A stretch of 64,000 bases of DNA. Origin: Flavobacteriales bacterium 33_180_T64. GTDB taxonomy: Bacteria; Bacteroidota; Bacteroidia; Flavobacteriales; Flavobacteriaceae. Positions 54,872 to 57,077 of this stretch are shown here, piece by piece (the first letter of the stretch is position 1; every line of letters starts with the position of its first letter). The stretch spans positions 4,259 to 68,258 of the forward strand of contig MAAQ01000023.1 in the NCBI GenBank assembly GCA_002162685.1. The letters are read 5' to 3'. Under the pieces are notes generated by a model that worked only from the letters and a program-made list of their open reading frames with translations, was not told the origin of the DNA and searched no databases. Position numbers and translations under genes: made by a program.

Positions 54872-54939
54872 ATCTTCAGGTTTAGGTTCTTATTTAAATA
54901 TAAGGATAGTATTTATTGTTGAATAGATTCAAAAATAAA

Positions 54940-55737
54940 ATGATGACCAAACTATTAGTGGCACTATGTCTTTTTGTAGTCCTAAGTTTCGTGTCCTGTA
55001 AAGAAGAAAAACAAAAAGTAGATACAAGTGAGTCTAATATACTTGTCGTTGATAGCTTAGTTGTTTATCAGACTGATAATTTAATGATTAGGAGGCTATC
55101 TAATCATATTTATGAGCATGTTTCTTATTTAAATACTAAGGATTTTGGTAAGGTTGGTTGTAATGGAATGTTGGTTGTGAATGAAGATAAAGGGATTCTT
55201 TTTGATACTCCAACGGATAACCAAAGTTCATTAGAATTAATAAATTTTGTAACTCAAGAGTTGAAAAGTGATATAGTAGCTGTTATCCCAACTCATTTTC
55301 ATGAAGATTGTGTTGGTGGAATAGAAGCGTTTGAAAAGCAAAATATTCCAATGTATGCAACGAACCAAACTATAGAATTATTAAAAAAGAAGGGTCAAAA
55401 TTTCTCTAAGCCTATAAACAATTTTGATAACAGTCTCACCTTAGATATTAAAGGCAAAAAAGTTTTTGCAACCTATTTTGGAGAAGGGCATACTAAAGAT
55501 AATATTATAGGATATTTCCCAGAGAATAATACCATATTTGGTGGATGCCTGATTAAGAAAGTTGGAGCAGGTAAAGGGAACTTGGAAGATGCAAACACAA
55601 ATGATTGGTCTGAAACTGTTCGCAAAATCAAATTGAGATATCCAGAAGTTGAAATTGTTATTCCTGGTCATGGAAAATGGGGAGGAATAGAGTTGTTGGA
55701 CTATACAATAGAGTTATTTGAAAAAAGTAATATATAA
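54940..55737 (+). CDS. Subclass B1 metallo-beta-lactamase, lipoprotein
   Basis: THFHEDC (HxHxD), GHT, GGCLIK, GNL and PGHG: all six B1 zinc ligands are present. Lipobox FVSC. Confidence 0.9.
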   Translation: MMTKLLVALCLFVVLSFVSCKEEKQKVDTSESNILVVDSLVVYQTDNLMIRRLSNHIYEHVSYLNTKDFGKVGCNGMLVVNEDKGILFDTPTDNQSSLELINFVTQELKSDIVAVIPTHFHEDCVGGIEAFEKQNIPMYATNQTIELLKKKGQNFSKPINNFDNSLTLDIKGKKVFATYFGEGHTKDNIIGYFPENNTIFGGCLIKKVGAGKGNLEDANTNDWSETVRKIKLRYPEVEIVIPGHGKWGGIELLDYTIELFEKSNI

Positions 55738-55739
55738 AT

Positions 55740-55765
55740 GCATCTTTTTTATAAGATTGTCGTCT
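55740..55765 (+). promoter_or_regulatory. Candidate ECF-sigma promoter
   Basis: GCATC (55740-55744), 16-nt spacer, CGTCT (55761-55765), 30 nt upstream of the Cys-rich ORF. Confidence 0.5.
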
Positions 55766-55794
55766 ATTAGGTGAATCAATAAAAATAATATATT

Positions 55795-55896
55795 ATGAAA
55801 AATACCGAATGTACTTGTAATTGTGAAGGCTGTAAAAGTGGAGACTGTAAAAACTGTTCTTGTGAGAATTGCTCATGTAACAATTGCAACTGTTAA
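55795..55896 (+). CDS. Metallothionein-like 33-aa peptide, absent from the ORF track
   Basis: MKNTECTCNCEGCKSGDCKNCSCENCSCNNCNC*: 11 Cys, no His or aromatic residues. A-rich initiation region. Confidence 0.85.
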   Translation: MKNTECTCNCEGCKSGDCKNCSCENCSCNNCNC

Positions 55897-55912
55897 TTTA
55901 AAATGATCCTCT

Positions 55913-55958
55913 AAACAGAACTTAATTAGTGACAACCTACTAAAAGGTTCTGTTTTTT
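55913..55958 (+). terminator. Interrupted hairpin with T tail between the Cys-rich ORF and the sigma gene
   Basis: AAACAGAAC...GTTCTGTTT outer stem, TTAGT/ACTAA inner stem, then TTT. Confidence 0.5.
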
Positions 55959-55971
55959 AGTAATATAAAGT

Positions 55972-56511
55972 ATGAGTACTAAAGACATATGGAACCTTTA
56001 TGCAAACGATATCAAACACTTTATTTTAAGTAAAGTAAAAGATACCACAATCGCTGATGATTTATTGCAAGAGACTTTTATTAAGGTGCATACAAAAATA
56101 GAGACCTTAAAAGATAAAAGTAAGTTAAAACCTTGGCTGTTTTCAATTGCGAGATATACAGTTTATGATTATTTTAAACAACATGTCAATTCGCATGAAA
56201 TTTCAGATATAGATATTATTTCTAAAGATTCAATACTAGAACATAACGAAAAAGATTGTTTGTATGGTATTGTAAAAACCTTGCCTAAAAAATATAGAGA
56301 TCCATTGTTTCTGTCAGATATTAAGGGAGTTAAGCAAAATGTAATCGCTCAACAACTTAAGTTGAAGCTTTCAACTACAAAATCAAGAATTCAACGCGCT
56401 AGGAAATTGATAGCTCAAGGCTATATAGATTGTTGTGATTTTAAAATGAATGATAAAGGTATTTTGATAGGTGAAGTCAAAGAAAAAGAGCAATGTAAGG
56501 TTTGTAACTAG
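55972..56511 (+). CDS. ECF sigma factor, SigZ-like, with Cys-rich C-terminal tail
   Basis: Region 2 DDLLQETFIK...WLFSIAR, region 4 LSTTKSRIQRAR, tail YIDCC...EQCKVCN. Confidence 0.9.
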   Translation: MSTKDIWNLYANDIKHFILSKVKDTTIADDLLQETFIKVHTKIETLKDKSKLKPWLFSIARYTVYDYFKQHVNSHEISDIDIISKDSILEHNEKDCLYGIVKTLPKKYRDPLFLSDIKGVKQNVIAQQLKLKLSTTKSRIQRARKLIAQGYIDCCDFKMNDKGILIGEVKEKEQCKVCN

Positions 56512-56567
56512 TAGCAAGCTAAACTTATAATAGCACTTAAAAAGAATTCAATTTTTGTGAATTGTAA

Positions 56568-56963
56568 TTACAATGTCATCATCCAACTGCGTTGTAAACG
56601 TTTAAATTTTTTTATTTCACTTTGTAGTACTGGTAAGAAATCGCTACCATTACTATTACAATGTTGTAAACGATTGCAGTTAAGGTGTAATCGATGTGTT
56701 AAGTGTTCTAAAGATGCTAAATGCTTATGTTTCTTGTCGGAAAAACGTTCCGCTTGAGCTTTCTCAATTTCGGGAGCTAAGGATTCAGATTGTTGAATGA
56801 TATCTCCAGAAAAATAAATGTCTGTATCCTCGCTACCATCAGGTCGTAAATAGGATAAATCTTGATTGATATACGTTGAAATGTTTCTTGATATCACAAG
56901 AATATCTATAGCCTTTTGATATATAGGAAGTTCAGATAAGTTTGATGGAATGTTATATTTCAT
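56568..56963 (-). CDS. Hypothetical protein, probably a four-helix bundle
   Basis: LPIYQKA N-terminus and an all-helical pattern. ATG 56963 is preferred over the ORF-track start. Confidence 0.65.
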   Translation of the reverse strand: MKYNIPSNLSELPIYQKAIDILVISRNISTYINQDLSYLRPDGSEDTDIYFSGDIIQQSESLAPEIEKAQAERFSDKKHKHLASLEHLTHRLHLNCNRLQHCNSNGSDFLPVLQSEIKKFKRLQRSWMMTL

Positions 56964-57077
56964 TTTCAATAGCAATTGTAACAAAATTAATGACAAGTGA
57001 CGAAAACTTAATTTAGATTTTAAAGTAAAATCGTATATTTGATTTAATTATTAATGTTTATTATTAAATTACTTTAA

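Follow-up and report, generated by a model that had tools for sequence, protein, structure and literature searches.

A conserved cysteine-rich peptide gene and an adjacent SigZ-like, cysteine-tailed sigma factor form a candidate metal sense-and-sequester module in marine Bacteroidota

Small cysteine-rich metal buffers whose genes are induced by a nearby or same-regulon metal sensor, giving negative feedback, are exemplified by SmtA-SmtB, a cyanobacterial metallothionein with a dedicated sensor. To our knowledge, only a handful of bacterial metallothionein families have been characterised. A similar link connects MymT with RicR in Mycobacterium (PMC10141476). Metal-responsive regulation is also known from the extracytoplasmic function (ECF) sigma factor CorE2 of Myxococcus xanthus, which has no anti-sigma factor, is activated by Cd/Zn and requires a CxC in its linker as well as a tail with six Cys (PMC4937300). 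SigZ of Bacillus subtilis and CorE2 have been placed together in group ECF238 (PMC7826278), as an earlier note on the DNA studied here had stated of the SigZ and CorE lineages, although this grouping has been criticised as heterogeneous (PMC8999054). Here we analyse a window of 64,000 nucleotides (nt; the window being the whole stretch of DNA analysed) from contig MAAQ01000023.1 of Flavobacteriales bacterium 33_180_T64, in which a 33-codon open reading frame (ORF) for a Cys-rich peptide precedes the gene for a SigZ-like ECF sigma factor with a Cys tail. We favour, at somewhat better than even odds, the reading that the pair senses and sequesters thiophilic metals. The earlier note knew of no account of this pairing, and we likewise found no description of the peptide family or of the pairing in the literature on SigZ, CorE, ECF238, bacterial metallothioneins and these taxa.

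The layout given by the earlier note, a 33-codon ORF followed after a 75-nt gap by a Cys-tailed SigZ-like sigma gene with an EKDCL segment, is accurate as judged by the ORFs and family models. The features of the pair are as follows.

55739-55776, plus strand: predicted ECF-type promoter of the peptide gene, from a motif in related loci
55795-55896, plus strand: peptide ORF of 33 codons, MKNTECTCNCEGCKSGDCKNCSCENCSCNNCNC, with 12 Cys in 33 residues
55913-55958, plus strand: stem-loop and T-run between the peptide and sigma genes, from folding energy and related loci
55972-56511, plus strand: SigZ-like ECF sigma gene, 179 amino acids, from the ORF and family models
56242-56259, plus strand: His91 through Cys96 codons (H-N-E-K-D-C), where the region 2-4 linker ends
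56431-56508, plus strand: codons of the Cys tail (Cys154-Cys155 ... Cys175-x2-Cys178), from invariance in relatives

The sigma ORF starts 75 nt past the peptide stop codon. Its product ends in ...AQGYIDCCDFKMNDKGILIGEVKEKEQCKVCN, a longer C-terminal stretch reading ...YIDCCDFKMNDKGILIGEVKEKEQCKVCN, and the EKDCL segment precedes region 4.

This locus shares with SmtA/SmtB and MymT/RicR the predicted combination of a small Cys-rich buffer gene with a metal sensor. However, those sensors are repressors (ArsR-type and CsoR-type, respectively) whereas the predicted sensor of the window is a sigma factor, and the window peptide is shorter than SmtA and MymT, which contain His and have no sequence relationship to it. 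With CorE and CorE2 the window sigma has in common the lack of an anti-sigma factor, a Cys in the linker and a short C-terminal tail with several Cys. At the CxC position of CorE and CorE2 the window sigma has His91 and Cys96, so that its linker reads His91-x4-Cys96 instead of the essential CxC (PMC4937300). In CorE/CorE2 the tail arranges 6 Cys differently over 28-38 residues, while that of the window sigma has 4 (CC...CxxC); the CorE/CorE2 targets are efflux pumps and oxidases, while the single predicted target here is a metallothionein-like peptide; and CorE/CorE2 belong to Myxococcota, the window sigma to Bacteroidota. Since it has no CxC, the window sigma is not of the CorE type (former ECF44). 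The CorE-type analogy drawn in the earlier note consequently does not extend to membership in the CorE-like group. SigZ is the best-scoring family and aligns end to end, tail included; it has no known anti-sigma factor (PMC7826278). Nonetheless the SigZ match adds no mechanism, because the function and regulon of SigZ are not known.

The peptide gene and the sigma gene are tightly linked. Among 80 loci encoding relatives of the window sigma (55-69% identity, many Flavobacteriaceae genera), the peptide ORF lies 53-93 nt upstream of the sigma gene in 79, the exception being an Aquimarina locus with an 8-Cys variant. The earlier note had named rare linkage of the two genes in relatives as evidence against its reading, and this survey of the sigma subgroup for tiny Cys-rich ORFs indicates that linkage is not rare. 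At the exceptional locus (L079:2822-2911, Aquimarina sp. I32.4) the short peptide before the sigma gene has 29 amino acids and may have diverged or undergone a frameshift. Species-representative genomes were also searched with a degenerate DNA pattern built on the Cys skeleton, which matched at least 120 stretches. Among the matches listed, 6 are TGC repeats and 114 are true peptide genes from Flavobacteriaceae, Saprospiraceae and Cytophagales, and a sigma gene occurs within a few hundred bases in 87 of the 104 listed loci that have enough downstream sequence. These linked loci include Saprospiraceae, in which the sigma factor is just 35-42% identical to that of the window. Within an even sample of Flavobacteriaceae the Cys pattern is present in 50 of 401 species and 39 of 302 genera (~13%), always as one copy, and the reversed pattern gave 0 matches in the same 401 species. 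The occurrence of the Cys pattern and its linkage to the sigma gene are far beyond chance, and only these two genes travel together while the other neighbours change. The promoter described below is found in about one third of the species of the window's own genus, which together with the 50 of 401 species indicates that the module is accessory and patchy.

Comparison of 78 distinct nucleotide sequences of the peptide gene indicates that the encoded protein is what is maintained. The peptide follows the pattern C-x-C-x-C-x2-C-x4-C-x2-C-x-C-x2-C-x-C-x2-C-x-C, and these 11 core Cys plus one Gly are invariant even as TGT and TGC codons are freely swapped. Column entropy summed over codon positions 1, 2 and 3 amounts to 13.4, 12.4 and 32.4, respectively, and such variation at third positions with fixed residues is the signature of selection on protein; positions with preferred Asn or Thr are also kept at the protein level. 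Judged from these alignments, the ORF is a genuine gene under protein-level selection. It is nevertheless skipped by gene finders, which leaves transcriptome and proteome studies blind to the peptide. For example, an exact look-up of four of the peptides returned none among ~15 billion predicted proteins, and the complete genome of Psychroserpens ponticola contains the ORF, yet no gene is called there.

In the window peptide, 12 Cys make up 36% of the 33 amino acids and there is no His, Phe, Tyr or Trp. The peptide is thus small, Cys-dense, built around CxC and CxxC motifs and poor in aromatic residues and His, which are the features by which metallothioneins are operationally recognised from sequence, and it would presumably bind metal in thiolate clusters. 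Neurospora-type fungal copper metallothioneins are likewise very short, with CxC and CxxC motifs and no aromatic residues, and in the alpha domain of vertebrate metallothionein 11 Cys hold four divalent ions. Neither has detectable homology to the window peptide and their Cys spacing differs; they suggest stoichiometries only. As far as the searches of Pfam models and the PDB extend, the peptide resembles metallothioneins but belongs to none of the known metallothionein families. The metallothionein-like ORF of the earlier note has therefore fared well as a real, conserved gene with the sequence features of a metallothionein, but not as a relative of any known metallothionein model.

A promoter of ECF type precedes the peptide gene. 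Its -35 element, TGCATC (55739-55744), is followed by a T-run, its -10 element is CGTCTA (55761-55766), the spacer is 16 nt, and a downstream GTGAAT (55771-55776) has the conserved form (A/G)TGAA. The -35 region has the form TGCATCTTTTT, with the 16-nt spacer and CGTCTA after it, and the consensus of 150 loci is TGCATCTTTTT-N11-cGTCTAtTataTGAAc. All 150 loci have the 16-nt spacer, and in most the CGTC lies 27-29 nt from the ATG. ECF promoters typically carry CGTC in the -10 element; promoters for ECF24 and ECF44 are absent from the text of Rhodius 2013. The presence of this motif follows the presence of the sigma gene. In a tally drawn from 174 distinct loci, the motif is present in 144 and missing in 3 when the sigma gene is adjacent, and present in 0 and missing in 17 when it is not (Fisher p = 2e-20, a value that ignores kinship among the loci); two of the three sigma-adjacent loci without the motif are one base off it. 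Most of the lone peptide genes display TAnnTTT(G/A)-type boxes in place of the ECF promoter, which we take to be the -7 element of Bacteroidota housekeeping promoters, and 14 of the 17 genomes with a lone peptide gene have no SigZ-like sigma at E <= 1e-15. These counts suggest that the promoter is gained or lost along with the sigma gene, and this co-occurrence is the best available evidence that the sigma factor reads the promoter.

The lone peptide genes (L084, L100, L106, L141, L167, L175, L190, L200 and others) are found mostly in small genomes of 1.4-2.9 Mb from uncultured marine Flavobacteriaceae and Saprospiraceae without the sigma factor; many of these genes have a housekeeping-type -7 box and some a clear terminator. 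Such sigma-free lineages may produce the peptide constitutively.

The regulon of the window sigma seems, by motif search, to consist of one gene, that of the peptide. The 150 promoters were turned into a weight matrix, which found a single site above 18 bits in the window's own 3.75-Mb genome, the peptide promoter itself (41.9 bits). A strict pattern searched in 101 related genomes matched once in 14 genomes and twice in none, and 11 of the 12 matches inspected precede a peptide gene with a Cys-tailed sigma gene. The twelfth has no open frame downstream, and a near-identical match occurs in another genome. These searches brought up no further regulon member: the weight matrix gave none in the window's own genome, and the two extra, near-identical matches in relatives include the inspected one without a downstream open frame.

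How the sigma gene itself is expressed is less clear. In a single-sequence fold, a stem-loop (55913-55955) with a T-run begins 17 nt after the peptide stop in the window (-15.3 kcal/mol, z = -2.9). Across 144 related intergenic regions the median is -21 kcal/mol, with z < -2 in 91%, and a U-rich run trails the hairpin in about half of the loci. The displayed stems vary among genera, which indicates that the structure itself is what is kept. A clear stem-loop with a U-run also follows about 6 of the 17 lone peptide genes. Additionally, a housekeeping-type -7 box occurs in or after the hairpin in 101 of 132 spacers, where shuffles predict 35; it lies 4, 13 or 31-36 nt before the sigma start and, in many genera, inside the hairpin loop. 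The window's own spacer (55897-55971) has no TAnnTTT(G/A) box. In Tenacibaculum the -7 box is only 4 nt before the sigma ATG and would give a leaderless sigma mRNA. The hairpin is probably the terminator of a short peptide mRNA, and it may be leaky. The ECF promoter would likely yield a short, abundant peptide mRNA, with the sigma factor made by read-through, from a weak promoter of its own, or both. The earlier note had the sigma factor transcribing both the peptide gene and itself. A unique, co-occurring promoter fits the first part of this claim, whereas the conserved hairpin and the -7 boxes before the sigma gene in many relatives make transcription of the sigma gene from the ECF promoter uncertain; positive autoregulation is possible.

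The window sigma is recognised as an ECF sigma factor by TIGR02937 (64.4 bits, cut-off 42.9) and by the Pfam families Sigma70_r2 (48.7) and Sigma70_r4_2 (39.3), each over its cut-off. The best family is SigZ: NF007215 aligns over profile positions 1-181, tail included, with 164.4 bits, below its 212 cut-off, and TIGR02959 gives 147.7 bits, below its cut-off of 168.65. The protein falls short of the SigZ equivalog cut-offs and is, on these scores, SigZ-like rather than a SigZ equivalog. When whole genomes were searched with NF007215, the window sigma scored 163.7 bits, and the cut-off was exceeded in just 1 of 14 control genomes. There are two SigZ-like ECF sigma factors in the window's genome, the remaining 23 ECF-like matches scoring 83 bits or less. 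Features by which ECF238 is described are also present, namely a Cys-bearing extension of ~20 amino acids, a linker Cys as in some ECF238 members, and no anti-sigma factor.

Six residues stand out as the candidate sensor. Across 44 diverse sequences, 36-67% identical to the window sigma, there is no variation at His91, Cys96, Cys154, Cys155, Cys175 or Cys178, and a set of 82 sequences that includes one paralogue likewise keeps all five Cys unchanged. The four tail Cys of this set fall within 25 residues (CC...CxxC). In an AlphaFold model (mean predicted local distance difference test score, pLDDT, 84; tail 67-81) the last helix of region 4, at 133-155, ends with Cys154-155, Cys96 begins the first region-4 helix, and a beta hairpin with strands at ~158-165 is followed by the CxxC. 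Matches to solved structures of ECF sigma factors end at residue 148. We infer from the invariance of these residues that the sigma factor may bind metal.

The genes around the pair are not part of it as far as can be judged from relatives. Two of them border the pair in the window.

54916-55737, upstream gene: subclass B1 metallo-beta-lactamase gene (NF033088, 254 bits, cut-off 200)
56568-56996, minus strand: convergent gene of 142 amino acids, the next gene 3' of the sigma gene

The earlier note had described a Zn-dependent beta-lactamase upstream that might be coincidental, a convergent gene downstream, and no adjacent anti-sigma gene, and all three points are borne out. Conserved anti-sigma genes are lacking beside the pair in the 80 relatives, in the larger set and in 50 diverse loci. 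A hidden anti-sigma factor was considered in a Cys-rich, plus-strand ORF of 66 amino acids (56557-56757) and rejected, as this ORF is an antisense frame of the 142-amino-acid gene that is interrupted by stops even in the closest relatives. A link to the metallo-beta-lactamase was rejected because it is found in 0 of 80 relatives and in 1 of 147 loci of the larger set. In relatives, what precedes the peptide gene is a methylmalonyl-CoA-mutase-like gene or some other gene. The beta-lactamase gene of the window lies between the mutase and peptide genes, and its nearest named families are CIM and CHM, both under their cut-offs. It is apparently a lineage-specific insertion, since none of the 80 loci, several with the mutase upstream, has a homologue. 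The 142-amino-acid protein has no family match; it is encoded in 65 of the 80 Flavobacteriaceae loci (66-88% identity), convergent to the sigma gene. Its gene was rejected as a module part because it tracks the synteny of an AsnC-type regulator and the mutase and is absent from Saprospiraceae pairs. The AsnC-type regulator and the 142-amino-acid gene occur in most Flavobacteriaceae loci and in no Saprospiraceae locus, and thus both reflect synteny rather than the module. The 127 genes surveyed around the 50 diverse loci belong most often to the Pfam families AsnC, methylmalonyl-CoA mutase, DJ-1/PfpI, DUF3703 and OsmC, and the 25 commonest families include no metal transporter, metallochaperone or maturase of RiPPs (peptides that are made on the ribosome and modified after translation). 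With no maturase enriched among these neighbours, the identity of the peptide as a RiPP precursor was rejected.

A sister system appears to exist in the same genome. Outside the window, contig C17 encodes the other SigZ-like, Cys-tailed sigma factor (C17:5536-6078, 172.6 bits, the next ECF sigma reaching 83 bits). Within C17:2761-8849, three units each follow a promoter that reads TGCATCATTTTTAAAA-N6-CGTCTTA and has a 15-nt spacer. The first unit contains a flavoprotein oxidoreductase. The second begins with an ORF of 52 amino acids bearing three CC pairs (C17:4243-4401), after which come an MFS transporter, the sigma gene and an ArsO-family monooxygenase (NF040505, 488 bits, cut-off 425), and the third holds a secreted Cys-rich protein of 173 amino acids. 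The cluster also has a DUF4405/DUF2271 protein and a second flavoprotein besides the oxidoreductase. Of 41 orthologous loci, which come from several Bacteroidota families, ~30 keep the CC peptide. From its gene content, the cluster looks like an arsenic- or thiol-related regulon of the sister sigma. As the CC peptide stands first behind a promoter of a Cys-tailed sigma factor, the theme of a small Cys peptide recurs, and the ArsO neighbour keeps metalloids (or thiol stress) among the possible signals. A hybrid peptide at L235:2239-2400 has an N-terminal half like the CC repeat and a C-terminal half, CECTCTCSCTSC, with CxC of the metallothionein type, which hints that the two peptide families have related jobs.

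Taken together, we propose with a probability of roughly 0.55 that the peptide and sigma genes form a two-gene sense-and-sequester module for thiophilic metals in marine Bacteroidota. According to this model the sigma factor, which has no anti-sigma factor, would bear its own sensor, composed of His91 and Cys96 where the linker ends, of Cys154-Cys155, and of Cys175-x2-Cys178 in a tail of 30 residues. Should a thiophilic metal or metalloid build up in the cytoplasm (candidates are Zn, Cd, Cu, Hg and As(III)), it would bind this site and activate the sigma factor, a step that is modelled on CorE2. RNA polymerase carrying the sigma factor would then initiate at the genome's single TGCATC-N16-CGTCTA promoter and make a short mRNA for the 33-residue peptide with its 11 core Cys. 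The hairpin would stop the majority of transcripts, and a few may continue into the sigma gene. The peptide would bind the metal in thiolate clusters, free metal would drop and the sigma factor would be switched off. Metal binding by either protein, the way the switch turns, the nature of the signal and the feedback are the parts of the model that we infer. A bolder form of this proposal, which we put forward only as a doubtful speculation, is that the peptide and the Cys-tailed sigma constitute a minimal closed-loop homeostat with a one-gene regulon, in which the peptide would be both metal sink and direct off-switch (as a metal acceptor or as the smallest known anti-sigma factor). The peptide would then found a new, widespread bacterial metallothionein family in marine Bacteroidota that annotation has overlooked, with the C17 sister system suggesting a general class of Cys peptides with Cys-tailed sigma factors.

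Several points weigh against the sense-and-sequester model. The case is built from sequence comparison. The peptide has no Pfam match even at E <= 10 and no NCBIfam match, and a profile of 28 peptides searched against the PDB gave nothing at E <= 10. The context names no metal, as no metal gene is enriched among the 127 surveyed neighbours. The linker departs from the essential CxC of CorE2, the ECF238 group that joins SigZ and CorE2 is disputed, and the association of promoter and sigma gene disregards common ancestry. The AlphaFold model was read as secondary structure and pLDDT, and the Cys/His set could act as a redox switch or hold a structural zinc instead of sensing metal.

The last of these points leads to a quite different reading, in which the Cys/His set would hold a structural zinc much as in RsrA but built into the sigma factor, oxidants or electrophiles would create disulfides and drive out the zinc, thereby activating the sigma factor, and the peptide would serve as a sacrificial thiol buffer or scavenger. 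The H-x4-C and CxxC of the sigma factor do resemble the zinc-binding ligand sets of RsrA-type anti-sigma factors, and among the surveyed neighbours metal genes are missing while genes for DJ-1/PfpI, OsmC and glyoxalase-type proteins, which are tied to electrophile or oxidant stress, lie near several loci. These neighbours, however, belong to the general synteny of Flavobacteriaceae and are missing from Saprospiraceae loci; redox sigma regulons usually hold thioredoxin-type enzymes instead of a single Cys-rich peptide; and fixed Cys spacing without aromatic residues is a sequence hallmark of metal-thiolate clusters. We consider a redox switch rather unlikely. A similarly small probability is given to a module for As(III) or Sb(III), signals that favour three-thiol sites and vicinal Cys pairs, with the peptide as an arsenite buffer or chaperone. 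The paralogous Cys-tailed sigma of the same genome precedes an ArsO-family gene and is predicted to control the peptide with three CC pairs, and the window sigma has an invariant CC pair of its own. Yet no ars genes lie beside the metallothionein-type pair in the 50 diverse loci, and the peptide motifs are CxC and CxxC, not CC pairs. A metalloid signal would in any case be a special case of the sense-and-sequester model rather than a separate mechanism.

Two further readings assign the peptide a role in regulation. It might be the partner of the sigma factor: as an anti-sigma or co-sensor of 33 residues, it would contact the Cys tail either directly or by way of a metal held in common, and the two would form a joint switch. 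Its gene fills the operon slot usual for an anti-sigma factor, the pair moves together across families while the remaining neighbours vary, and the regulon is apparently the peptide gene alone. We nevertheless hold this to be improbable given the 17 lone peptide genes without the ECF promoter, 14 of them in genomes free of the sigma factor, which indicate that the peptide has a function of its own. These 17 stand-alone genes, about 6 of them with a clear stem-loop and U-run, also speak against the ORF being a Cys-rich leader peptide that senses the supply of cysteine or Cys-tRNA and governs read-through of the hairpin into the sigma gene, as an attenuator ORF is expected only before the gene that it regulates. 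The order of a Cys-dense short ORF, a hairpin (with a T-run in about half of the loci) and a regulatory gene is indeed attenuator-like. However, the Cys spacing, the invariant Gly and the preferred Asn and Thr are conserved at the protein level, the single-sequence fold gives one hairpin 17 nt past the stop, and the ECF promoter is upstream of the ORF and not of the sigma gene alone. A leader peptide is accordingly judged very improbable.

If the sense-and-sequester model is true, SigZ-type sigma factors would gain their first concrete target, in the SigZ-like part of ECF238 that is so far without a known function. As each genome offers a single promoter, a single target gene and six residues as candidate ligands, the sensing mechanism would be directly testable in vitro. 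The peptide would represent a fourth metallothionein family, unannotated, and present in ~13% of the sampled Flavobacteriaceae genera as well as in Saprospiraceae, which would alter the view of metal buffering in these abundant marine heterotrophs.

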